Assembly (NCBI GenBank): GCA_973895155.1 | Contig: OZ316895.1 | Location: 14,636,716 to 14,700,715 of the forward strand | Direction: 5' to 3' | Length of the DNA stretch: 64,000 nucleotides | DNA from: Marsupella aquatica | Lineage: Eukaryota > Plantae > Marchantiophyta | The notes under the pieces: model-generated | What the model saw: the letters and a program-made list of their open reading frames with translations, nothing else | Told to the model about the DNA's origin: nothing | Database searches by the model: none | In this document: in pieces, positions 13,431 to 64,000 of the stretch | Layout of the letters: every line of letters starts with the position of its first letter | How positions within the stretch are numbered: the stretch's first letter is position 1 | Made by a program: the position numbers and the translations under genes

Positions 13431-15299
13431 TATACGGGTCAATAAATAATAAACCAAGGTAGGTGATCGAGTATCCTCCTGTCAATCGATAAGGAGAATT
13501 CCTCACAACCTCCTTAAAACTGACAAAAGGGGTCAAACTGACAAAAGGGGTCAAACAGTAAAATTTCAGTAAAATTTCAATGTCTGGAAGTAGACGTTAG
13601 TATCCTTCAGTACGTCCTTCTCTTGCGATCCCGGTACAGTAATTAACGAAACGAAGACTTCAGATAAAGCCTAAGCAGAACGGCCAAAAAAACCAACAAC
13701 GCTCGCAAATCAAACAGTAAGAATGCTTCCGAAACGAGTATGCTTCTCTTGCGTCCAATGAATGCAACTACCGGAACGAGTATGCTTCTCTTGCGGACAA
13801 TAGCTATGAAACTTCAGAAACGACTATGTTCTTCTTGCGGACAATGCAAAGATCGCATTGGTCGACTTCATGCATTGTCGACTTCATGTATGTCCGACAA
13901 AAAGCATGAAGTCGACCAATGCGAGTAAGTTTCTTCTAGTGCGAACAAGGTTATGAAATGACAGTAGCTGGGTAACCGCCGGTGCTTCGTAAGAAATCGC
14001 GGCGTAACATACCTACGTCCTGAAAATTCGTTGTCGATCAATATCCGGACCTTTTGCTCTTTCAGACTGACGCTTCGGATTGCTTCGGCTCTCTGCCCGC
14101 GGAACAGATCAAGAGAAGAGAGGAGAGGAGGCACCAAGAGAACAGACGAAAAGCTCGAACAGATCACAAGAAACTAGAGAACAACTCAGAGAACGACTGA
14201 AGTTAAGGCAAGACAGTCACTCCGTAAACGAAGCGGCTGAAATCGTAGTGCGAGTGCTTCGAATACATGAGAATCCCGAGATAGTTCGCTAGCTACCGAA
14301 ACCGCAAGGCTTTGCCATTGGAAATTTATACATGACGAACTGCACCATCAAAATCCTCGCACAATGATGTGGGGCAGCGATGAAGCTTTGCTACGTCACG
14401 AATTCATTCGCAGGATGTGCTGTGGATCCGAAGTTCGAGCAGAAAATCACGGACCTTATGAGTGGCTTTTTTATTTGTGCTTTAATCATATTTTTTTAAT
14501 CACATCAAATGACGTGGTCTCCTAAGGATAATGGTGGCGTATCGCTGGTTTAGGGTTTAGGTCAAGAGCTCGTGCAAGGCTACAAGCCTCAATGTGTCTC
14601 CCTACCATTGTTTCCATTCGGCTTTCAATTGGGGTTCCTTTGTTGGATTATGGGTTACTTGTAGTCTTTTGAGAGATACTAGATTTTTGGCCACCCTTGA
14701 TTGACATGCCATGGCCAGCAAATTAAGGCTAGGCACCATCAAGACAAGACACAGTAGTAAGCCCAAAAGGAAAACTCTGGCCCATGTGATGATAGTGATC
14801 CACCATGGATGGATTTCCTGATCCTCTTGATTCCAAAACTTGAACTAAACTTGAACAAATCTTTACGTTTGTCTTGCATGTAGTCCACCCTCAGTTTTGT
14901 GGCCCTCAATGCTCCCAACACTTCCAAGAAAAAAACCCAGAGGTATGCACCACAGCAATTTTGGTGTTGTAAGTTAATTATGTACTTAAAAATTGGCCAA
15001 ACACCTTGACTGTCAAGTGTAAAGTGAGTCAATTTATTTGCCTTTTGTTCAAGTGCATGTCACTGGTTGGGAAGAGTGTTGGGAGCCTGGTGTAGGGATT
15101 TCCTTCTACCAGCCAGGTAAATCTATAGTGGATATCTCTGACCAGCTAGATATAGTAATGGACTCACTTCCATTAATGACTCACCTCCAGAAGATGAACT
15201 CCAGCAACAGATTCCAAGCACTAGGCTGATTGGAATAGCGGAATTTGGTATGTTCTACAGCAGCCTCCAAAACAGCACTATCAAAATGAATGGTAACCT

Positions 15300-16866: not shown

Positions 16867-17487
16867 CTGGGGGGCCTCACTCTAAAGGGGGTCTCGTATG
16901 GGGTCTCATAACATGCTCGACATTTTTAGCAATTAAACACCCTAAAAAATAAGAAGAAAAAAATTGAACTATTTCTCTGCAACTCTTGTTTGGCCCCAAA
17001 TGAAATACTCCCAAATTTCATTTCTAAAATCATATCGATCCTTCTCTTATAATTCTCAAAATTGGATTTTAGAAACCCTAGCTAATGTTCTTTTACATAA
17101 ATTTAAAAGTATTCTTTTCAACCCAATAAACAAACCATATACTTACTTGCGCATGATCTCGGGGGTTTCACTTCCACAAAAATGGCATATCACGTGCGAC
17201 GAAGGATAGGGTCATTTTATTGGTTTTAAGGGAAGACTTAAGAATTTTTGTAGAAGAACAATAGGGTCTTTTAAATTCAATTTTGAGACTTATAAGAACA
17301 TTAGGGTCTTTTTAATCCAATTTTTAGAATATTCCAAGAATATTCCAACTTTATAGGGGTTAAAAATAATTTTCTTACATTTTAGGGGGTCCGAGGCCTA
17401 AAAACATCGCAGGCGATGGGGAGGTCCCCATATAGTGAGACCCCCGAGCGCATGATGGGTAAAAAGTAAATAAGTGAGGACCCTGAG
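16867..17487. mobile_element. MITE (outer), 8-bp TSD AAGTTATC, containing a nested MITE
   Basis: TIRs ctggggggcctcact / agtgaggaccctgag; aagttatc at 16859-16866 and 17488-17495. Confidence 0.85.
17158..17448. mobile_element. MITE (291 bp), 8-bp TSD CGCATGAT
   Basis: TIRs ctcgggggtttcact / agtgagacccccgag; perfect TSD; near-identical to 18461-18749. Confidence 0.92.
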
Positions 17488-18460: not shown

Positions 18461-18749
18461 CTCGGGGGTTTTACTTCCACAAAAATGGCATATCACATGC
18501 GACGAAGGATAGGGTCATTTTATTGGTTCTAAGGAAAGACTTAAGAATTTTTGTAGAAGAACAATAGGATCTTTTAAATTCAATTTTGAGACTTATAAGA
18601 ACATTAGGGTCTTTTTAATCCAATTTTTAGAATATTCCAATAATATTCCAACTTTATAGGAGTTAAAAAAAATTCTTACATTTTAGGGGGTCCGAAGCCT
18701 AAAAACATCGCAGGCGATGGGGAGGTCCCCATATAGTGAGACCCCCGAG
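18461..18749. mobile_element. MITE (289 bp), 8-bp TSD ACAAGGTA
   Basis: TIRs ctcgggggttttact / agtgagacccccgag; acaaggta at 18453-18460 and 18750-18757. Confidence 0.92.
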
Positions 18750-25592: not shown

Positions 25593-25868
25593 CTTGGGGG
25601 TCTCACTATATGAGGGCCTCCCCATCAACTAAATCAAGATTGCAAGAAAAAAAAAATCAACCCCTATAAAGTTGGAATATTCTTGGAATCTTCCAACTTA
25701 TTGATTAAAAATACTCTAATGTAACTTTTATAAGTTTCAACATTTAATTTAAATACCATATTGTTCTTGTGAGAAAATTCTTAAGTTTTCTATTAGAACC
25801 AATAAAACTATCCTAGATTTTGTCGCATGTGATGTGTCATTGTTGTAGATTAAAATGAAACCCCTTAG
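25593..25868. mobile_element. Degenerate MITE, same family, reverse orientation
   Basis: cttgggggtctcactatatg ... tgaaaccccttag; flanks agtaatgg / attaatgg (1 mismatch). Confidence 0.75.
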
Positions 25869-28800
25869 ATTAATGGGAGGCATGTTGCAGTTGTTGCCCA
25901 TGTCCCTGCCCATCCTATAGGCAAGGCAGCCCCTTTCAAGGAGGAGGCAATGTTGCTCTGTATGGTACTATGGGGATTTGTTTTCCGGCTTTCTTTGGAG
26001 GCTATGACTTTGAAGTTTTACATCCATTTTTTGACCATTTCCTGCAATCATTGTGGTTTGTTGCGTAGAAAGATGAGCTTATATATCACTCAGTTTCTGT
26101 CCTCATATATTGTCCTCTTTCTACATTGGGTGTTTACTCCAATGTTTATAGAGGGCTCAGGCAGCATTCACTATTCTACATAGTGTTGAGTAAAAATGAC
26201 ATTCCGGACAACATGCACATGTGACAAATGATCGAATCCAACAAATAAATAATATGTGATTAATTATCCTTTGATGAGGTTACGTCCACACGAACACACA
26301 GGAAATTCATTGCACTCTAGGTCCATTGGTCAGAGTTACCAAGTCTCCATAACACAAGTCTCACTATCTCTCAAATTGCTTCATAACGATGAGCCTGATT
26401 TTATGCTCCACAAACAAACACTACTAACTTGTGTATATACGATGCAACACATTTGGTAACCTAATCAGTCTGCAACCATGCTTTACTCATAGGACCCCTA
26501 ACTATGGCTACAGTCATTACTCTAGACCTAAGAATAAATGCCTAACATAGAGGGCCTACGCTGTTTGATTTTAGGGACTCTAAACAAATTCCTGTTTCAT
26601 TGTGACCCTCCAGCATATGCGGGTTTAATTTTTGGGCTTTACTACCCCAATAGGGCTTTAGTTCCTTTGTTGTTAATATGGGGGACTCTCAAGCCTTTAG
26701 GTCTTAAAGCTTTCTTCTGGGCCAGCCAGAGGTTTCCCTTGCTTTCTCCCTTTTATTGAGTCTCCTGCCTTTGAGATCCACTTCCTGGTTTGGCACTTTT
26801 GTTCATTTGAACTATGATCTATAAGAATAATTTTCTGAAAAAAGAATGGAGAATTCCATTGACTTTGTGGTGCATTTAATGCACTTTTCCATGATGATCG
26901 AGGACCCTTTCATTGGGTCTTGGTAAATTGCACAGCAAAATGCTGCAATGGGGGTTAAGTGTAAAGAACACTAAATGATATAAAAGTAAAATCAGGTTTA
27001 TCATCATATATATTACACTCACTGATATAAAACAATAACTGGGTTTAAACAATAGTTGGGTTTATCATGATATGGAAAATCCATTTGACCTGTGTTGGAA
27101 TGCTTGTCAAGTGGTTAGCACAATAAGCACAATACACAGTATGCTGGTTTTTTATGTCCTCTGTTTTTTATGTCCAATTACAGTCAGGCCTTTTATTGTT
27201 TCATTTGACAATTATATGCAGCCCTCGTAACACACTAAACCTATGGCATAAGGATCATGCCTATTTTCATATCTTTCCAAAAAAACGTTGATCGAAGTTG
27301 AAGCTTCGGCTAGTAGCGGACCAAAACCGACATTTACAATGTCTTTTAATTAGTGGAGTTCAAAGAGTGTTGCTACATTTTCGTCTTCATGTAATGTTGA
27401 AGTTTAAAGACCATGGTTTTGTAATGTGTGTTCGTATGACCATCAAATTGTAAACTATGGTGCTTGAGAGTGGTCAAGACTCTTGTATTCGAAGTGGACT
27501 TCAATGTGCAATTCGGGCACATTTGAAGAAAGACGGGAACAGAAAAGCTCGAATAGAGTACGTACCATGGCTGCTATTTTCGCGGGAAGGCCAGAAGGCA
27601 AACGATTTCACAAGTTAGTACGCACAAGGAGAAAGCCATGCAAATAAATCAAGATGTTCATTCTAGAGAAGCAAGGGATTGTCGAGCGGTAACTTTACAG
27701 AGTCTATACAAGTTAGCTGTCGATCAGCGATCACAGCCTTCGGTAAACCTCGAAAAAGTCTCAAGGTAGCGAACAGTCATCCTATCCAATTCTACAAGTC
27801 CCCAACTCAAATCTGACATTACCGAAAGAGCACAAGAGAAGAGAATTGTGCCAAATATTATGGGCGGTCCTTTAAATTTCCATTGGACAGTGAAGCGTGA
27901 AATGGATACTTACTGCAAATGGACAGGCAGTGGATGAACGGAGGGATTCGGCACCGTGGTTCAATTGTGGAGGGCCAAAAGTCATCTTGAATCAGAGGGC
28001 AATTTCAAATGATGCATCATAGGCCGGTCTGTGATGAATAAGCGATCTACATACTGAATATGAGCTATTGTAGCTTTTGAGAAAATTTTCCTTGAGGTTA
28101 CTGGATGGGAATCCCTACCTGTTCCATTCCACCCCAATCCAGTGCTCATCAATATACAAAGGCTACTAACTCGAAACAGGAAACAGTTTAGTATCTTATG
28201 TGCAAATTAAGAATAATGTACAAAGATTTTCTTCGAAAAGGAACCGCCCTTAAAATTGCAAAACTACTGCCCTCCTATCATCACCTCTTGTTGGGCACTC
28301 TATGTTTTTGGGGACTGAAAGACACTTGGTTTGCGGACTGGGGATGCCATGAAGTATAAGTTGACGAGACGAGCTAGATCGAACAGTGAGAACCTAAATC
28401 TAAGACGTATCAAATCCGTGTGGACGGTCATCCGTCAATCAGTCTCCATTCTAATTGGAAAGATTGGCAGGCTGGACCGCTCGACTCACATTCTGCCGGC
28501 ACATCTGACCGCAATAACAGGTTAGGATTCCCTTCCGTGCAGTGGCTCTTGAGTCTTGTTAGCAAGCTCATTCACATTTCGTCTCCCTGGCTTCACATGC
28601 ATCCGCCGATTGGAAGGTCGGCATTCTGAACCCTTTCCCTCCTCTGTCGATCTGTAACAAAATCCCACACCTCTTGCAATTCAGATACCTGTGGAGCCAA
28701 GGTTGAGACATATACGGATACTTTGTGGAACTAATTTTCATTTTAAATAGCATGCGTTGGCGTGGACCAAAGACCTGCCTGCCAAGCTGAATACAGCTCT

Positions 28801-32666: not shown

Positions 32667-33497
32667 TCAACGCCGTTGATTTATTCTCCATGAGGTTTCA
32701 GGCGTCCCAAGTTTCGAGGAAGCGTATCTGGCAGCTGTGAACAAATAATCACTCAAACGATTCAAGTACCGAACTACTGATTCATCCACCACCTGCTCTT
32801 CGACGAGAGTGGTCATTTTCCTTTCTGCACGCCGACAGATGGATCTCGCCACATGCAAAGATGAAGCAGGCAAACCACCAGACGGAAGGATGAAGCCCGT
32901 CTGGTGAGGCACCTCCTCGTCCATCTTAGCCCTCCAACTCTCGAGCACTTCAACTGTTGCCACATTGAATTTCACCCTCGGAACCTTCTTTGAAGAATTT
33001 GAAAATGGGTTGCTCAGAGGAACAGCAACAGCTGACCCAATGTCCAGCAGTCTCGACTGAATCTCCTCAATCTGCTGCAAAGTCGATGTCAGCTGAGCTT
33101 GAGAGCAATATGCATGTGCTAACCCTAATGTACTGCTCAGCTCATCGACAGCTCCCAGAGCTTCAAAGGTCGAACTTGATGACGACACTGAAGAATCTGG
33201 AGAAAAGAATCGAGTCCCAGGTGGGATACCCTTCACGGAGAGAGACTGGGTCGTCGTAAGAAGCCCTTGCTTTCCATACCGTGGTGTTCGAATTGCATCC
33301 CAGCGCAAAAGATGTTCCTCCAGTGGGCTTCTCGGCACGATGAGAGCATTGTGTGAGGAGGTTGTTCCATTCGATCTACTGGAAAGCAGCCTCTGATGCA
33401 ACTGAGGAGGAAGGGAATCCAGCCACGAGACTGCAACACGGCACTTCAGGGTCTCCCTGTGGATCGATCGCAGACAGTTCTGCATCGAAGTGGCCAT
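32667..33497 (-). CDS. MMAB: PduO/MMAB-type ATP:cob(I)alamin adenosyltransferase-like protein with probable organellar transit peptide, intronless
   Basis: FEALGAVDELSSTLG, IQSRLLDIG, FILPSGG, LHVARSICRRAER and YLNRLSDYLFTAAR are PduO-family motifs. Confidence 0.9.
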   Translation of the reverse strand: MATSMQNCLRSIHRETLKCRVAVSWLDSLPPQLHQRLLSSRSNGTTSSHNALIVPRSPLEEHLLRWDAIRTPRYGKQGLLTTTQSLSVKGIPPGTRFFSPDSSVSSSSSTFEALGAVDELSSTLGLAHAYCSQAQLTSTLQQIEEIQSRLLDIGSAVAVPLSNPFSNSSKKVPRVKFNVATVEVLESWRAKMDEEVPHQTGFILPSGGLPASSLHVARSICRRAERKMTTLVEEQVVDESVVRYLNRLSDYLFTAARYASSKLGTPETSWRINQRR

Positions 33498-33820
33498 GAT
33501 TGGAGACTACGCATCGACAGGTCTACCACAATCCATTGCTCTGCGTACTTGGGCACAACCTCTACAAAACTCTTCTGTACAAAAGTAAGACGTCCTCAAT
33601 ATTTTGATCAAATCTGATGGCAATGTCGCTGGTGATGAATGTCTGGCAACAAGGGTCTCAAATCTCAAACCTTGAGGTACTATTGCTACATACTCCATAC
33701 GCCCTTAAAGCAAGTTTTGTTAGTGTAACTGGGTGTTATCCAAACCCACGAAAGAAAATCTAAAAAGTATGGTCCAACTCACTCACTCCAAAGGCCATCT
33801 TGCATGTGAGAGGTCCTTAA

Positions 33821-55032: not shown

Positions 55033-55561
55033 GACATGGGAGCAATTGAGTGGCACAAAAGTTGTCAACTTTCAATTGGGCTCGGATTGGTCCAGGAGCT
55101 TCAAGACAAGGAAGCTCCATTCTTCCCGAGGCAACACTAATTGTTGAGCCATTCAGACTATATTACACTGAACAGAAGCCAATTTCCAAAAACATGACTT
55201 GACATCTTGACTACTTTCTCCACAGGGTTGCCGAGTGCAATCTGTGAATGGTTCCTTCTTCTTTTTGGTGTAAAAGCAGCCATCACTTTACACAGTCCAG
55301 GATGGGCAAGGATAACATCTCCATCCATCTGGATTGATGTGGTGGATTTGTAGTCAATATATGAAAAGTGTGATATATTTGTAAATACAACAACCCAATT
55401 GTAATTGGAATATCCTTAGTGACAAAGTAATTAAAAGGTGATTGTACTTATTAATACTTGTCATCATAAGGTGTTGTAGTGGCATTGTCATGCCGAGGGA
55501 CAGTGCCGCTTGTGCACATGCACTTATTAATACTTGTCATCATAAGGTGTTGTAGTGGCAT

Positions 55562-55920
55562 TGTCATGCCGAGGGACAGTGCCGCTTGTGCACATCGGCA
55601 TGTCCCTCGCATGCCTGCTAGGTATGTAGTTAGGGCTAGTGTACTACTTGAGTTAGTGTCATGTTCTTGTAGCAAGTTTGGGCCGTTCTTGAAGCAAAAC
55701 GTGCTTGTTAGTGTGACGCCTTGACTTGATCTACTTAGGGCATGTCTTTCTTTGTCGGTTTTCAGTTCTTCTTGAATCGCTGTTGACAGAGCTCAGACAG
55801 TGCTCGTCGGTTCCGTACACGGGATTCACACAGTGATTCGTTAGATGCTCCCGGCTGATCTTGGCATCCTGCCGGTTTTCGATTCAATTTCAGTACGATT
55901 GTTTCTCTTACGCCTTTTAT
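55562..55920 (+). repeat. Terminal repeat segment A1 (359 bp; starts TGTCATG, ends CGCCTTTTAT)
   Basis: Direct alignment with A2. Confidence 0.92.
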
Positions 55921-55933
55921 TCAAGAAGAACTG
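55919..55933 (+). promoter_or_regulatory. Putative self-priming primer-binding site
   Basis: attcaagaagaactg is the exact reverse complement of cagttcttcttgaat (55763-55777), which overlaps an Inr-like TCAGTT in A1. Confidence 0.75.
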
Positions 55934-57231
55934 TCGAGTTAGCGGTGACGGGAAGAAGATTTCTCGTGGCAGTTTTGACAATTTTTGGTTAAGCCATTGC
56001 AATTTCCTCGATAGACATTGGAACGAGGCTTCAAAACTATGGGTTTAGTGTGGAGTTATGTGTATACTTAAGTGTATACACATAACACTCCCGTCGGGGC
56101 CCAGGTTTTCCTTTTCCGGCCGCAACCTTCTTTGTGACCTACATCGGCGACTTGCTACCGACTGCACAGGCCGCTGCGCCCTCGCTCGCATTTTTAAGAC
56201 CCTTGTTCGTTAGTTTTTATGGGCATTTTCCCGGCCACGGCTGCCGCGCGACCACTTCCCTTCCGACCGCGCGCCCCGTTTTTCTCTTTTTCGCCGTTTC
56301 CGGCCGTAGTCTCCCCTTTGCCTCCCTCCCGATCGCATAAGGCAGGCTGCGCATAGGGCATCATGCCCTCTCGTTTTGACAGCATTTAATTAAGGAGGCA
56401 GGGAGTCGACTAGCCGAGCACAAGCGCGAGGGGGGAGACAGAGCCTAGGCAGGCAGCAGCGCAAGGAGTGGGCACGAGGCCCTATGCTGCATTAAAGGGG
56501 GAAGGGGAGTACATACGACTCCCTTCTCGGGAGTCCTCCTGCAGCACACGAAGCAGCATTAAAGCAGGGGGAGACAGAGCCGAGGTAGTGGGCACGAGGC
56601 CCTATGTGCTACATTAAATGGAGGGGGGGAGTACATATGACTCCTTCCCTCAGGAGTCTCCTGCAGGGCATGGAGCCCATTTTCAGCCTTAAGGAGGGGA
56701 GGGGAAGCGAGGCAGCATTAAAGGAGAGGAGGGGGGAGTTTGTAACCCCTTTTCGGGAGCTCATAAGGAGGGGGCGCGAAGCCCTATGCAGGGCTCGTGC
56801 CATTAAGAGGGGCCCCTGCATCCGCCATTTCTTTCCCTTCGCTGAGTGTCCGAAGTGTATACACTTAATTCGGGCCCTTTTCTTTTCGTTTTCGGCCGTT
56901 CTCGCTCATTCACCACGTGCGGGATGCCAGCATAGGGCATTGGGGCCGGCCAGTCCTTCCATTTTTGGGTCCACATAGGGGCCTGAGGTATATACTTCAG
57001 GGGGCCCATTTTCCTCATATTCCTTTGCTGTCGCCGACGTCAGGTCGTCTATATACAGCCCGGTATATACACAACGGACGGTCAATTCGGCATATACATA
57101 GGCAAACGCGAAGGGGGCTAAATTTGAGGTTTTAAGGGTCCTTTTTCCCCGACGGTTTTTTGACGGTGACGGTTTTTCCTGGTGTTTACACATTTTGCAC
57201 GTTTTCAGTATATCCGGTATTGCAACACAGT

Positions 57232-58269
57232 ATGTCAGCAGACGAGCCAGGAGGTAGCAACACATCACCGCCGACATCCAGGTACCGTTTACGGAGTGAT
57301 CCACGACTATTGGTGCCAATTTCATTGGAGTCTCAGCAATTTCGACGACGTCCGTAGACAGCAGCAGCACCCACACCACGCAATCCTTCTGCTCAATTTG
57401 GCGGTCGCTTCACCACTACTCCAAAGCCTGCTATCACTTCATTGCCATTTACCCCTTCTGCATCCGTGGTTGTTCCTGCTTCACCGACATACAGCATGGA
57501 CGCCAGCCACTCATCTGGCCGCATTGAACGCTTCAGTGGGCGGCCAGACATTGTTTCTTTGCGTGAGTTCAAATCCACTTTCTACACTGTCATTTATGAA
57601 TTGGAGTTGAAGTATGGCAGCAATTTCACAAATGCCTTTGCATTTAAACAGCTAGCCAGGTATGTGCACCACGAGGTTTTAGATGTGTATGAGCAGCACT
57701 CTCAACGGCTGCTTGCCGTCACACAATTGCCTAACCCTGCCTATGCCATTGCAATTGCGGCTGCCTCACAACTGGCATTACAGAATGCCATTGCAGCCCA
57801 TGCTGCTGCTCCTGCCACTTCCCTTTCTACTCCAGTTCCCACCATTGCACCAGTTACTCCCACTATCTTGGCACACGCTACATCAGGCATTTCTCCCACC
57901 ATTGATTCCCCTGCCTTTGCTGATCCAGTGGCTGAGTCTTTCCAGGTTCTTGAATTGGAATTCCCAATCAAGAGTGCTGACAAAATCATGCAGTTGGCCA
58001 CCTTTGTGAGGCAGCGCGATGAAACATTGAAGATGATGTATCGCCGGCTTCTCCAGCTGAAGGAGGACACCTAGAGCATCATTGACTTGGAAGCTGCTCA
58101 TTGCTATCTTCGCTCATTGGAGGGCACACTAGCTCTCCATTCGCAAGTGTTGCAGCAAGTATTCTCAGAGTTTGGAGATAGCTACACCCTGCTCAATGTC
58201 TATGACACTGCTGAGAAACTTGAGTTGGCCCATGCACATTATGAGGCCAGTATTGCGCGTCCACCGCGA
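57232..58269 (+). pseudogene. gag: gag-like ORF of copy 1, with in-frame TAG at 57355 and 58072, truncated by insertion
   Basis: ORF pieces 57160-57357, 57442-58074 and 58087-58284 share one frame; IERFSG..LREF.. and RQRDETLKMMYRRL resemble retrotransposon capsid motifs. Confidence 0.7.
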
Positions 58270-58445
58270 TGTCGTGACATATAGTATCGTAGCCATAGTG
58301 TATCGAAAACATACAAGTCACCGGCAAGGCATATGTGCAAGCTGCTAGCAACCAACATGCATAGAAAAAGTCCAATCACATTCACAAGTGCCAAGAAAAA
58401 GCAAATGAAGTGGTATGTACGTAGTGGAGGTGTAAACCTCTGTAT
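58270..58445 (-). repeat. Terminal repeat segment B2 (176 bp; ends ..CACGACA)
   Basis: Direct repeat of 58807-58982 with 3 transitions. Confidence 0.95.
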
Positions 58446-58804
58446 ATAAAAGGCGTAAGAGAAACAATTGTACTGAAATCGAATCAAAAACCGGCGGGAT
58501 GCCAGGATCGGCCAGGAGCATCTAACGAATCACTGTGTGAATCCCGTGTACGGAACCGACGAACACTGTCTGAGCTCTATCAATAGCGATTCAAGAAGAA
58601 CTGAAAAACCCACAAACAAAGACATGCCCTAAGTAAACAAAGTCCTGGCGTCACACTAACAAGCGCATTTGCTTCAAGAACGCCTGGCATTTGCTATAAG
58701 AACATGTCACTAACTCAAGTCGTACACTAGCCCTAACTACATACTTAGCGGGCATGCGAGGGACATGCCGATGTGCATAAGAGGCACTGTCCCTCGGCAT
58801 GACA
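58446..58804 (-). repeat. Terminal repeat segment A2 (359 bp; starts TGTCATG on the minus strand)
   Basis: Inverted copy of 55562-55920. Confidence 0.92.
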
Positions 58805-58806
58805 AC

Positions 58807-58982
58807 TGTCGTGATATATAGTATCGTAGCCATAGTGTATCGAAAACATACAAGTCACCGGCAAGGCATATGTGCAAGCTGCTAGCAACCAACATGCATA
58901 GAAAAAGTCCAATCACATTCACAAGTGCCAAGAAAAAGCAAGTGAAGTGGTATGTACATAGTGGAGGTGTAAACCTCTGTAT
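58807..58982 (-). repeat. Terminal repeat segment B1 (176 bp), immediately after the PPT
   Basis: Direct repeat of 58270-58445. Confidence 0.95.
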
Positions 58983-59000
58983 CCCCCCCAGACCCTCGCC
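58983..59000 (-). promoter_or_regulatory. Polypurine-tract-like sequence (..GGCGAGGGTCTGGGGGGG)
   Basis: G-rich tract between the pol stop (59034) and B1. Confidence 0.75.
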
Positions 59001-59048
59001 CAGACCACAGCCAAAAGGAGGGCTGAAGAAAATTCAGGTAGCACGTGG

Positions 59049-59195
59049 AGCACATGAAGGGCAAAACCATAACCCTTCTGGCACCTGGGTAAGTTCAAGC
59101 CGAAGGCAGAAAAGATGGTACCCTCCATTGCAATTGTCACACAGCAGCATCTGGTCAGCATCATCAATTCGCAAACACACTTTGCAAGGGTAGTC
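59049..59195 (-). other. PHD finger at the integrase C-terminus
   Basis: DYPCKVCLRIDDADQMLLCDNCNGGYHLFCLRLELTQVPEGLWFCPSC (C4HC3 plus conserved W). Confidence 0.93.
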
Positions 59196-62100
59196 CACAC
59201 GTGGAATCCAGGTAGAAGTCACAATGGTGGGATCCAGGTTAGGCAGATGACAAGGGGCGCAATTCTTGGCATTGTCAGCAATTGTGCGCCCATCTGCCCC
59301 TTGTAACTCTAGCACTCCAGACGGTCGAATAGCTTTAACCCTGAGAATTGTACGACTGGTAGAGGTGTCTAGGGTGTCGTTAGCTTGCCGCTGCAAGTAC
59401 ACAAAATCTCCCACATCAAACTTCCTGACCTTGGGCTGAAAAGTGCCCCCTCGTGTGTGTGCATAACGCAGTGTGTCCCTATGCTGTGCAATGGCCAAAT
59501 TCTCCATGGCCATGGGCATAACCCTCCTGAATGGGGCAGCCCTCTCAGAGATCACATCAGACCAAGTCACAGCTGAATCCAAGTCTACCACCTGAACCAT
59601 GTGAGCAGCAATAGCAGAAGGTGGAACTGGGTGACGACCAAACAACAAGAAGTAGGGAGAAAAGTTAGACAATGATGCATGTCTAGACATCCTATACCCC
59701 ATGGCAATGTAGGGTAAGGCCAGGTCCCAATCCTCCTTGTTTTTGGTGAGGCAAATCTTCCGGAGACCCTTCTTGCATGTCTGAACCATGCGCTCTGCCA
59801 AGCCATCTGCCTGTGGGTGATCTCGTGACGTTCGGCGATGATCAATGAGGGCTTGATCAAGCAGCTCCTGGAACTCTCCTCTGAACTTTGATCCCTGGTC
59901 AGTGAGACATTCTGCACAAGCTCCAAAGCGGCTGTGAACTTGTTGCAGGAATGCCTGGCTCGTGCTACGAGAGGTCTTATCCGGCAATGCCACAAGTTCT
60001 ATCCACTTGGAGAAATGCTCTATCATGATCATGATGTAGAGATTATCCTGAGACGTGAGGGGTAATTCTCTAGCCAAATCACATGACCAGCGATAAAACA
60101 TGCCCTGAATAGGGAGTGGATGAAGTGTGGGTTGCCGAGATGTGAAAGAAGTCCTCACCCTATCACATTGTTCACACCGAGCAATAACATCTTGAACCTG
60201 GCCATGCATGCCTCTCCAATGATAATGAGGGACCAAGAGGCTGTAAGTCCTCTTAACGCCAAAATGACCAAGCTCATAATGTACCTTACGGATAAGGCCA
60301 ACCCTCTCATGAATGGGTGGAACCACCACTTCCCTGTCTGGCAAGCAGCGCATGAGATGATCTCCCTTCCACAAGTAACGCTTGGACCTTTGCTGAATTC
60401 GGTCTCTCTGGGTTGCAGTAACATGTATGGGGTACTCCCCATGCTGCAAAAATCTCATAGTGTCGCTGTCCTCCCATATGTCCACCACAGGTTGGTCAAC
60501 GATATAGCATGGCAGCAAAGCAAGATAGGTAAATGCATGAAATGTAGGCAGGATGGAAACCTGGTCAAAATCCTGCCGTGCATCTGAGGGATCATCAGAG
60601 GCAATCAAAGGGCTGCGGGACATAGTGTCAACATTTTGATGTGTCACACCAGGCCTATGAATTACCTCAAAATCATACTCCTAGAGTATGAGTGCCCAAC
60701 GAGCAAGCTTGCTAGTAAGCTTGTCGTTGGTCATCAACCACTTCAAGGGCTGGTGGTCGGTGTAGAGAACAAACCTGGTCCCATAGAGGTAGGGCCTGTA
60801 ATGTATTACAGCCCACACAACAGCAAGGCATTCACCCTCATAAGAAGAATAATGACTCTCTGTCTGATTGTTGCTCCTGGATGCATAGGCAATGACGTAC
60901 TCTTTACCTTCCTCATCATGCTGGCCTAGAATGGCACCAATCCCAAGGGCACTCCAATCTGTGTGTAGCACAAAGACCTTGCTGAAATCAGGTCTTCTCA
61001 GCACCGGGTATTCTGAGAACTTCTCCTTCAAAGTGGCAAATGCTGCCTTAGCATCTGTACTCCATGTCCAAGTCACATTATTTTTCAACAAAGAGTGCAA
61101 TGGATGTGCAATGGTACTGAAATCTTTGATGTAGATCCGGTATTAATTGCACAGCCCAATAAAACTCCTCAAAGTGTGAACATCGGTAGGAGTGGGCATT
61201 TCCAAGATGGATACCACCTTGGCCCAGTGAGCCATGGTTCCATTTGGAAGAATGCGATGCCCAAGATATACTACTGATCTGACAGCAAATTCACACTTCT
61301 TGGGGTGTATCTTTAGGTTCACCTTCTTAAGCCTCATGAATAGCTCCTCAAGGTCAAGTAGATGTTGGTCAAATCCTTTGCTGTGGACCAACACATCATC
61401 AATGTAGCATTTCAGAAACTCAGCACCTTGAAGAACCTGGTCCATGACTCTTTGAAAGAATATGGGCGCATTCTTCAAGCCAAATGGCATCACCAACCAC
61501 TCCCATAGTTGGTTACTACCATGGAAAGCTATTTTCTTGCGGTCCTTTGCAAACAGCAAAATCTGGTTAAAGCCTTGCCTTAGATCCACAAGAGTGAAGA
61601 TGTCTGAGTCTCCAATGCTGTCAAATAGCTCCTCTGGCCGTGGCATGGGGTACCTGTCCTGGGGTGTGACCAGGTTCAGTGGCCTGTAGTCCCCACACAT
61701 GCGCTTCTCTGTCCACAATCCACTGGAATCCTTCTTTGCTGGCATCACTGTAGCTGCTGCAAAATCTGATGTAGATGGCTGAATAAGACTAGCTTCATAG
61801 AGCTCTTGGCATCTCTCATCCACCAACTGCCACTCATGCTTACTCAAACGGTGTCTCCGCCTGAAGATAGGTGTTTCATCAGCCAAATCAATGGAGAACT
61901 GCATAGTCTTGCACTTACCCAAGTCCTTCATAGAGAAAGCAAACACATTCTCATGCTTGAGGAGCAAATTCAGCAGCTGGTCCTTCTGTCTTTTACTCAG
62001 GTGGTTGCCCATGATGAATGTGTAGTTGGCAACACTAGGAATAGGACCTGATGTACTCGTGCTTGAAGAGCCAGAAGTGCCAGCCTCTCCACTGTCCAAG

Positions 62101-62364
62101 CTGCTAGCATGCTGCTGATAAGATGATGAGGCCTCTCCAAGGCCTGCTATATCTGTTGCTCTGGTCTGATCCACACCATGAAACTCAGAAATAATGTCAG
62201 CCACATTACAAGGGACCTCCTCCCCCCCAACACTTGGACTGAAGTGGTGAGTGTTGGACAGAGGTAAATGCACCTGGTCTGGATGCCATGTAGCAGCACC
62301 ATGGAGTGGTAGGGCTAGAACTCCTGATGCTGGATGAATGTACATCTGAAAAAGGATGCAAGTG

Positions 62365-63305
62365 ACCAGAAGCCAAGTGAGAGCATTAAGATCCATTACC
62401 CTATCAAGTAAAGCATTCCTGGCCAGCCTGGTGATTTTGGTGTGACTGTAGTACCGGGTTGGAAGCCCATAGCCCGTTCTCTCTCCTCAGGACTAGGTTC
62501 ATCCCATGTACCGGTGGAATGTCGATAAACCAGGCCAGGACCATCACCCTGAAAAGCATGTGCACCTAGAAAGGACACAAATGTAGGCCAAGCAACACGG
62601 GGCTGTCCAATGGTATTAGCTGGATACCAAGGTGCTGGCTCTTGCCGTGTAACCGGTTGGCAAGAACTGTCAGGATCCAAAATCTGGTCCACTATGAGGT
62701 TAGTGACCCTGGATGTGTGGTGAAGAGCTAACTCCAACAAGGAAGGTGGTGCAAGGTTAGTCCAAAAGTTACGAAGACGATGTGCATAAGAACCATAGTG
62801 CACTGCATCAATGAGAAGGGGTGGTCCCAAGTAGTGCTGGACCACACTGAAATCCTCTTTGACCTGTGGACGCTGGTCAAACTGAGATGGAGTATTCTCA
62901 ATGATATAACCAACAGCAAGATAAAGGGATTGAGCCCAGATGAGAATCAAAACCAATGCTGTGAAAAGGCCAGAACGAGAATCATGCAGTCCAGCACCGT
63001 GACCAGCAGCTGAAAACCCTTGGCATTCCCAACCAGCAATGATCAAATCAAGGGAGCCAAGAAGGGTTAAGTGCCGGTGCTGGACAAGCTGGATATCTGG
63101 AGGAAAGAAAGAAAATGCAGACTTCCATGCACTGTGTGGAAACTGCTGAGGAAATCGCTCTGAAAATTCCAGTAGACGGGATTCAGCCACTTGCCTTGCA
63201 CCTGGATCAATATCCACATAGATGTACTGCTTCACCACCATGCCAGACTATAGGAGAGCTTCCAGGCCTGTAGAAATACCACCAAAAAGCTCAAGCAATG
63301 TAAGG
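62365..63305 (-). other. C5 cytosine DNA methyltransferase domain (DNMT3/DRM-like) within pol
   Basis: Motif I LLELFGGISTG, II YVDID, IV DLIIAGWECQGFS, VI IIENT, VIII HRLRNFWTNL, IX EERERAMGF, X RNALLDRVMDLNALTWLL (after the frameshift). Confidence 0.9.
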
Positions 63306-64000
63306 CCATCCGGAGCAGGAGTCCATGTAACTGGTACGCTCAAGATTGGGGCTATTGGCTGTCCATTGTGCTGCCCAAGGTCTTCAAACTTGCGCAATGC
63401 AGCCACCAAAGGTCCATGGGCTGCTTGGAGTCGTTGTACCACCTCTGGTTGATGATCCACATTGCTGGAAAGTGCTGCTATATGTGCAGCGGCATGTGCA
63501 ACAGCCACCTCATCATCATCCTCCTCAATCCAATCCTGCAATGGGTGATTGACATAGGTAGCTGTGTGCACTACTTTCAACACACAGTGGTGAGCCATAG
63601 GTGTATGGGCACCATGCAAATCAAGTGGAATGTAGCCCAAGTGTGAGCCATCCGTATGCCAATCAACTCTGTAGTATGCATGCTCATGCCAGTTGTCAAT
63701 GGTAAAACCTGGTGGGAACAAAGCCTCCTGGCCAATGAGCACATCATACGTAGTGGCATTGGTAACCAAACATTTGACTGGGAAATGCAGTTCCTGATCT
63801 ATACCTCCATTAAAAGTGAGAGTGAGTAAAGTAGAACTCTCACCCAACACGTCCTCCACGGTGCCACTAGCAGTCCGAATGTGCCACCTGGATTGCTGTA
63901 AATGATGAGTCAGCAGTCCCATCTTCTTGGCAAACTGAATGCCCAAGATTACTGGTTGAGCGCCTGTGTCTAGCATGACCACCTGAGGAGTGTGACCCTC

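Follow-up and report, generated by a model that had tools for sequence, protein, structure and literature searches.

Self-priming of reverse transcription is in print for Tf1/sushi, Tcn1 and TAR (PMC6317226). The primer-binding site (PBS) of Tf1, Tf2, Tj1, sushi and plant Tcn1 lies by the end of the long terminal repeat (LTR), is complementary to the predicted first bases of the element's own RNA and is not a tRNA site (PMC7175516, PMC4600332, PMC6317226). The Tf1 primer cut falls between bases 11 and 12 (PMC7175516).

Split repeats have been described for KnitGypsy-Dnmt3 of Klebsormidium nitens, a Gypsy element with repeats in the order A-coding-B-A-B, which the legends of Figures 1e and 4c present as DIRS-like (de Mendoza et al. 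2018, PMC5890265). The same paper gives the A...B-A-B layout for SymbioDIRS-Dnmt3, a split-direct-repeat tyrosine-recombinase element. The split layout is already in print for KnitGypsy-Dnmt3; in the available text of that account we found no priming mode, no geometry of the polypurine tract (PPT) and PBS, no inner attachment site and no integration route. Primer binding does not appear in the supplements, nor the PHD finger in the main text. A literature search of sources other than subscription papers, theses and Repbase gave no account of the priming mode or integration route of these elements. The active, PHD-bearing Gypsy-7a_cRei of Chlamydomonas has a left LTR without the last 8 bp of the right LTR (10.1101/2022.06.16.496473, legend of Figure 8A), an arrangement that this layout might produce if B were very short. 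Phygy, a bryophyte Gypsy group, uses a tRNA-Trp primer (81%), has no extra domain and inserts into NCGN targets (PMC6317226).

The window (the whole 64-kb stretch of DNA analysed here) contains two copies of one Gypsy family, both decayed. Element 2, on the minus strand, is nested in the gag of element 1, on the plus strand. The two features that mark KnitGypsy-Dnmt3, a Gypsy Pol carrying a C5 cytosine methyltransferase and A-coding-B-A-B repeats, are both found, and K. nitens proteins are 45 to 55% identical to the window integrase. KnitGypsy-Dnmt3 was published for the K. nitens lineage whereas the present host is a bryophyte, and the named protein relatives come from Calypogeia (up to 88%), Klebsormidium, Closterium, Marchantia and Haematococcus. 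Directly beside repeat A1 lies a complement of the predicted RNA start, and from the sequence comparisons described below we think it very probable that the element primes with its own RNA 5' end. That this site is a self-primer binding site and, in addition, that copies are joined head to tail and then cut at an inner site for integration is a reading we consider probable. The primer alone would be a new instance of known self-priming, although apparently not within the groups (Tf1/Tcn1 and TAR) for which this mode has been described. What makes it useful is that it marks where the replicated DNA ends on the right.

Two nested elements and their relatives

Element 1 opens with A1 and the complementary site, which are followed by a leader and then by a gag-like frame with stops (Table 1). 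Other copies carry gag onward past 58270, where element 2 interrupts element 1. In its own orientation, element 2 shows protease, C5 methyltransferase, reverse transcriptase (RT), RNase H, integrase, PHD finger, G7, B1, GT, A2 and B2. The methyltransferase (PF00145; window positions 62396-63247, minus strand) is placed between protease and RT, and is also found in the Pol of many loci of a sister family (see below), in a distant contig, L001, and in a Marchantia-named protein. The catalytic motifs of RNase H (D-E-D) and of the integrase (D-D-E, rve) are both present in element 2. A Pfam search of its Pol gave no chromodomain but a PHD finger instead, and no GPY/F motif was found in element 2. 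A search of viral contigs returned nothing for the element.

Table 1. Coordinates of the features of elements 1 and 2 in the window
Feature	Position	Strand	Remarks
Repeat A1	55562..55920	+	5' terminus of element 1, running from TGTCATG (left integrase end) to ...TTTTAT (predicted to close the replicative LTR on the right)
Degenerate TATA-like site TACTTAGG	55732..55739	+	-32 from A55764; weak in the window
Predicted RNA 5' end and self-primer	55764..55777	+	Start and cut predicted; predicted 12-nt primer 55764-55775, helix 2 nt longer
Complement of primer segment	55919..55932	+	Last 2 nt of A plus predicted 12-nt primer-binding site 55921-55932
Imperfect second complement of 55764-55789	55931..55958	+	Rivals primer:PBS pairing in folds
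gag-like frame of element 1, with stops	57232..58269	+	tblastn to sister elements; ended by insertion of element 2
Repeat B2	58270..58445	-	Closes element 2 on its outer 3' side with CACGACA; flanked by TCGC
Repeat A2	58446..58804	-	A2/B2 joint 58446/58445 precise, A end to B start
2-bp spacer GT	58805..58806	-	Between B1 ...GACA and A2 TGTC...; predicted internal attachment site
Repeat B1	58807..58982	-	First letters, ATACAG, adjoin the polypurine tract; the replicative LTR is predicted to begin here on the left
Polypurine tract G7	58983..58989	-	G run likewise placed in classified sister loci
pol of element 2	59034..64000	-	Stops and frameshifts; leaves the window; aspartyl protease, C5 cytosine methyltransferase, RT, RNase H, integrase, PHD finger

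The family appears to be highly abundant here. In run X1 its depth is about 1e5, compared with about 50 on the flank (these are depths, not copy numbers), and family depth climbs sharply at 55562, the start of A1. A 76-bp tandem duplication (99%) at 55443-55594 extends from the flank 33 bp into A1.

The label 'Tf1-like', given to the element in a preliminary description of this DNA, holds for the mechanism only and not for membership, since the element has a PHD finger, lacks a chromodomain and appears to belong to a separate RT clade. In an unrooted RT tree, which did not include named Tf1 or Tcn1, 30 PHD/DNMT-type rows lie on one side of a 100/99 branch and 6 SH3_Tf2/chromo-bearing rows together with 19 others on the other side. 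Unlike Tf1, sushi and Tcn1, the elements studied here have a PHD finger in place of the chromodomain, no GPY/F, a methyltransferase in Pol, and split repeats. Membership of the chromovirus clade was rejected: in addition to the missing chromodomain, the 5' repeat consists of A only and ends in AT rather than CA.

The family resembles Phygy in being a bryophyte non-chromovirus Gypsy of similar size with 4-bp target duplications (PMC6317226), and one window flank, TCGC, fits NCGN. Identity with Phygy was nevertheless rejected. No TGG follows repeat A here, and a strict NCGN target is not tenable, none of the nine exact target duplications (0/9) having a central CG.

PAT, TOC1 and Ngaro are split-direct-repeat tyrosine-recombinase retrotransposons. 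The inner B/A joint of such elements matches the two outer ends brought together, as it does here. We rejected identity with DIRS, PAT or Ngaro on the basis of the rve integrase with its D-D-E motif, the TG...CA ends, the 4-bp duplications, the PPT and the PBS (scored for element 2 on its part within the window).

The complementary site and its conservation

Positions 55919-55933 are the exact reverse complement of 55763-55777 (15 nt), precisely as the preliminary description had it. Among 5000 dinucleotide shuffles of repeat A, none gave a perfect complement of more than 12 nt to 55911-55950, the longest being 12 nt. Across the 64 kb, only three more perfect inverted-repeat tracts reach 15 nt with their arms no further than about 400 nt from each other; they lie near 13853, 24249 and 24303. 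The outer pair, 55763:55933, is not conserved. Position 55933 is C instead of G in 9 to 26% of the depth in four runs with the window's own family, and no matching change at 55763 is listed in these runs. This leaves a conserved helix of 14 bp, formed by 55764-55777 and 55919-55932, of which two pairs sit within the end of repeat A (55919-55920). This gives a complement of 12 nt past 55920, or 14 nt with the overlap into A. The Tf1-type definition of PMC6317226 (at least 10 bp, located 0 to 5 bp after the 5' LTR end and complementary to the LTR) describes this site as well.

Within the window's own family, neither arm of the helix has a listed substitution of at least 2% (four runs, represented by contigs; changes near the edge of the stretch are perhaps under-reported, and the primer segment contains no CpG). 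Variation is found at 26 positions between the two arms and at 5 of the 10 positions just after (four runs). The unchanged 15-mer in repeat A2 (58589-58603) had also been cited in support. The letters are indeed identical to those of 55763-55777 but their value as independent evidence was rejected. Repeat A2 lies on the minus strand, so that these letters are A2's own copy of the primer segment rather than another PBS and, because A1 and A2 are 90.6% identical, an unchanged 15-mer has a chance of about 23% and adds nothing.

The sister family (65 to 78% identity in the integrase) was obtained from a metagenome scan, of which the best 80 of 571 confirmed loci have integrase identities of 63 to 78%. 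Conservation in other copies, which the preliminary description had required, is observed here: 17 of 20 distinct 5' ends pair at 12 to 14 of the 14 positions, and pairing fails in three (L018, L057 and L085). The sister primer segments lie 118 to 146 nt upstream of the end of A. With 100 control leader windows per element, the pairing score was never reached in 14 elements and was reached once in 3. Compared with the window, two positions of the helix are changed on both sides with pairing kept (cross-family pairs were taken from coordinates rather than from a MAFFT alignment). Among the sister copies themselves, RNAalifold shows a single two-sided change in the helix.

More distant families are represented by four contigs (L001 to L004; 45 to 50% identity) in prokaryote-labelled assemblies, two others being too short. 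All four carry a G run, a short B and GACA-NN-TGTC after the PPT. Contig L001 (50%) has a perfect 13-nt pair whose sequence is unrelated to that of the window, and which is reached by 0 of 300 shuffles. The perfect 12-nt pair of L004 (47%) shows two compensated differences from the window and is reached by 3 of 300 shuffles; the LTR end of this contig is not fixed. In L003 the inner GACA-NN-TGTC site is present but no primer pair was found within 1.46 kb of sequence. The search for compensatory changes in related families, recommended at the outset, has thus given kept pairing in three of them (the sister family, L004 and L001). The eukaryote-type retrotransposon sequences of L001 to L006 belong to GTDB representative genomes with bacterial or archaeal labels, probably through binning contamination by eukaryotic contigs.

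The partner of the site is likely to be the start of the RNA, judging from its position relative to TATA. In 41 of 49 sister A copies, TATA begins 32 nt before the primer's first A (these copies are related and include both LTRs of some elements). In the remainder it is found at -31 or -33 (two copies) or at -11 (one copy), or is absent (five copies), and none of the 49 has a TATA at -150 to -46. The -32 spacing is occupied by a canonical TATAAAAG in the sister family, compared with the degenerate TACTTAGG, a poor TATA, in the window. Plant initiators follow the rule of a purine after a pyrimidine. The segment opens in this way in all four families and this, together with the unconserved outer pair, leads us to place the predicted start at 55764. 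An initial estimate of about 55763-55764 can be narrowed accordingly: 55764 is the more likely position and a start at 55763 was rejected for the same two reasons.

Exactly 12 complementary bases follow the end of A in both the window and the sister family, and a primer of about 12 nt is therefore predicted, compared with 11 in Tf1. Immediately after the site, C is found in 10 of the 17 sister copies counted; L001, L004 and a minority of the window's family have it too. This C does not complement the -1 base. A speculative explanation is that it is copied from the cap.

Self-priming is thus supported by compensated pairing in three families and by the sister TATA at -32, as well as by the apparent lack of a tRNA-type site: as initially noted, no TGG follows repeat A. 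Placement of the LTR end at 55920 is confirmed by the A2/B2 junction and by the loose ends of other copies at 55920, which continue into B. The split layout on which the split-LTR model rests is found throughout the family.

Repeat ends and A/B joints

The full A1...B-A-B arrangement was found in 12 sister loci (11 insertions). Starting from the 80 loci, 7 that were too short and 6 without a recognised B1 start were left out. The 67 classifiable 3' ends, with repeated insertions merged, include 28 B-A-B, 25 that stop at the CA of B1, and one B-A followed by other sequence. Thirteen loci were merged as repeats of one insertion (L082 and L084 on layout match only) and the classes were corrected by hand after automatic scoring. 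The A...B forms (L011, L048, L071, L072 and others) account for about half of the 3' ends, several have exact target duplications, and they are scattered on the tree.

In 17 elements with both ends, 4-bp duplications outside TG...CA are exact in nine, have one mismatch in five and are absent in three (those of L042, L079, L083 and L086 were placed by hand). A solo A-B is also flanked by a 4-bp duplication. In GACA-NN-TGTC, a layout common to the sister and distant families, the TG and CA ends face each other across 2 bp inside the LTR. Since the PPT fixes the left end and the PBS the right end, the TG/CA ends used by the integrase lie inside a replicative LTR of the form B-NN-A. This explains the A...B-A-B repeat layout.

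The A/B joints are variable. An indel is present in 14 of 28 insertions (seven of -2, two of -1, three of +1 and two larger), a substitution in 1, and 13 joints are precise. LTR pairs show 0.031 indels per 10 bp, a comparison for which a binomial test overstates certainty because the copies are related. No indels of this type were found at the A/PBS and PPT/B1 borders. The joint types do not cluster on the integrase tree (25 changes compared with a shuffled mean of 25.4; the tree was without L066 and included both L010 and L016, which are one insertion). Two close sisters, L029 and L034, have the same -2 joint, a result that inheritance would also give. In L073 (11558-12491), the start of B2 is shifted to a GGTGG run within the PHD frame, some 140 nt ahead of the usual polypurine tract, and this run is likely to be an alternative plus-strand priming site. 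From the scattered indels and the alternative B2 start in L073, the A/B joint appears to be made afresh in each cycle.

Proposed route and alternatives

We propose the following route. The RNA would start at A55764 and anneal through its 5' end to 55919-55932. Cleavage by RNase H after about base 12, in the manner of Tf1, would release the primer, and DNA synthesis would begin at 55920. Plus-strand priming at the G run before B would then yield a linear B-NN-A...B-NN-A, whose boundaries are visible in the copies and whose use is predicted. The ends of this linear copy (ATAC... and ...AT) are not integrase ends. They would be joined afresh, A end to B start, most simply in a 2-LTR circle, as suggested by the scars at the junctions. 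The integrase would cut the inner GACA-NN-TGTC and insert A...B-A-B; the layout and the 4-bp duplications are observed, and the chemistry is predicted. The A...B copies, which are about as common, could arise from one-LTR circles, from double-cut linear DNA or from later B-B recombination.

The different parts of this route carry different weight. On the evidence of the joints, we believe that the ends are probably joined before integration. That the joined form is a circle is only slightly favoured: a 2-LTR circle is the most economical interpretation, and identical scars would be expected from an RT end-jump or a head-to-tail dimer. The balance is even for the broadest proposal, namely that these elements represent an old green-lineage clade of self-priming Gypsy elements whose integrase ends have moved to the middle of the LTR, that the 2-LTR circle is their required integration precursor and that a DDE integrase cuts the circle junction.

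In circle junctions of the IS3/IS30 type, joining of the DNA leaves two CA ends facing each other with a short spacer between them. Two CA ends are similarly abutted in retroviral 2-LTR circles, and integrase cleavage of circle junctions has been described (PMC1180852, PMC4372172). Linear DNA is the normal precursor for retroviral integration (PMC5789633). Unlike the retroviral case, every LTR here contains the abutted site, and the termini of the cDNA do not correspond to integrase ends. If the proposed route is correct, a DDE-integrase retroelement would normally insert from end-joined, likely circular, DNA, against the linear-precursor rule. A circle precursor for retroviral integration was reportedly proposed in 1984, and the old question of the integration precursor would become testable. 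Elements with split repeats are also likely to be missed by LTR finders that require two full LTRs.

Self-priming could be correct and the extra B still be acquired without a circle, if RT jumps between ends or a head-to-tail linear dimer is formed and the integrase cuts the inner sites of linear DNA. Joints with a 2-nt microhomology loss or 1-nt additions fit RT jumping and host end-joining alike. Moreover, Tf1 RT adds non-templated bases and Tf1 cDNA keeps PBS and PPT tails (PMC11042837). However, an extra, undescribed step is required, and the 25 distinct A...B copies follow simply (although not solely) from one-LTR circles. We regard this explanation as unlikely.

It is considerably less probable that the complement is a structural RNA stem (for packaging, as a translation switch or in the leader) and that priming is by a host tRNA fragment or an RNA 3' end. 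The folds do offer a stronger stem for the same 5' bases: 55764-55789 with 55931-55958 reaches -27.6 kcal/mol compared with -17.4 for primer:PBS, whose predicted probability falls to 0.02-0.41 at two of the five 3' lengths tested. The 198-nt fold is unremarkable (z -0.89). The second complement, for which the sister family shows no counterpart, may act as a switch or be left over from copying beyond the primer. In 19 sister copies, which are decayed, RNAalifold gives the primer:PBS helix and only short other stems. A U5-IR-like stem beside the PBS is counted as a feature of Tf1-type self-priming and was not recovered in these copies. Several observations argue against a purely structural role: the site abuts the LTR end exactly, its partner begins at TATA +32, there is no TGG, and Rfam gave no match in 55400-57300. 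The site follows the LTR of each family as it varies, which would be incompatible with a fixed host tRNA primer; no tRNAs were found in the window and loci for comparison with the site.

Models for split-repeat tyrosine-recombinase elements pass the A/B joint on through RNA. If this were so here, the complement would guide strand jumps. The repeat layout is that of SymbioDIRS (PMC5890265) and, as mentioned, L029 and L034 share a joint type. Against it stand the DDE integrase, the 4-bp target duplications, the PPT immediately preceding B1, the scatter of joint types on the tree and the alternative B2 start in L073, and we consider such inheritance highly improbable. A chance match or a one-off rearrangement of the locus can be dismissed: although the two repeats belong to two nested, decayed copies, it is refuted by the shuffles, the family-wide recurrence and the distant relatives.

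Two other features of the window lie away from these elements. An intron-free frame at 32667-33506 (minus strand) matches cobalamin adenosyltransferase (PF01923, E 6.6e-42). The other is a direct repeat of 291 bp (96%) at 17158-17448 and 18461-18749, about 1.3 kb apart, with weaker inverted and distant copies near 25641-25870 and 43977; it is possibly a small LTR-like element.
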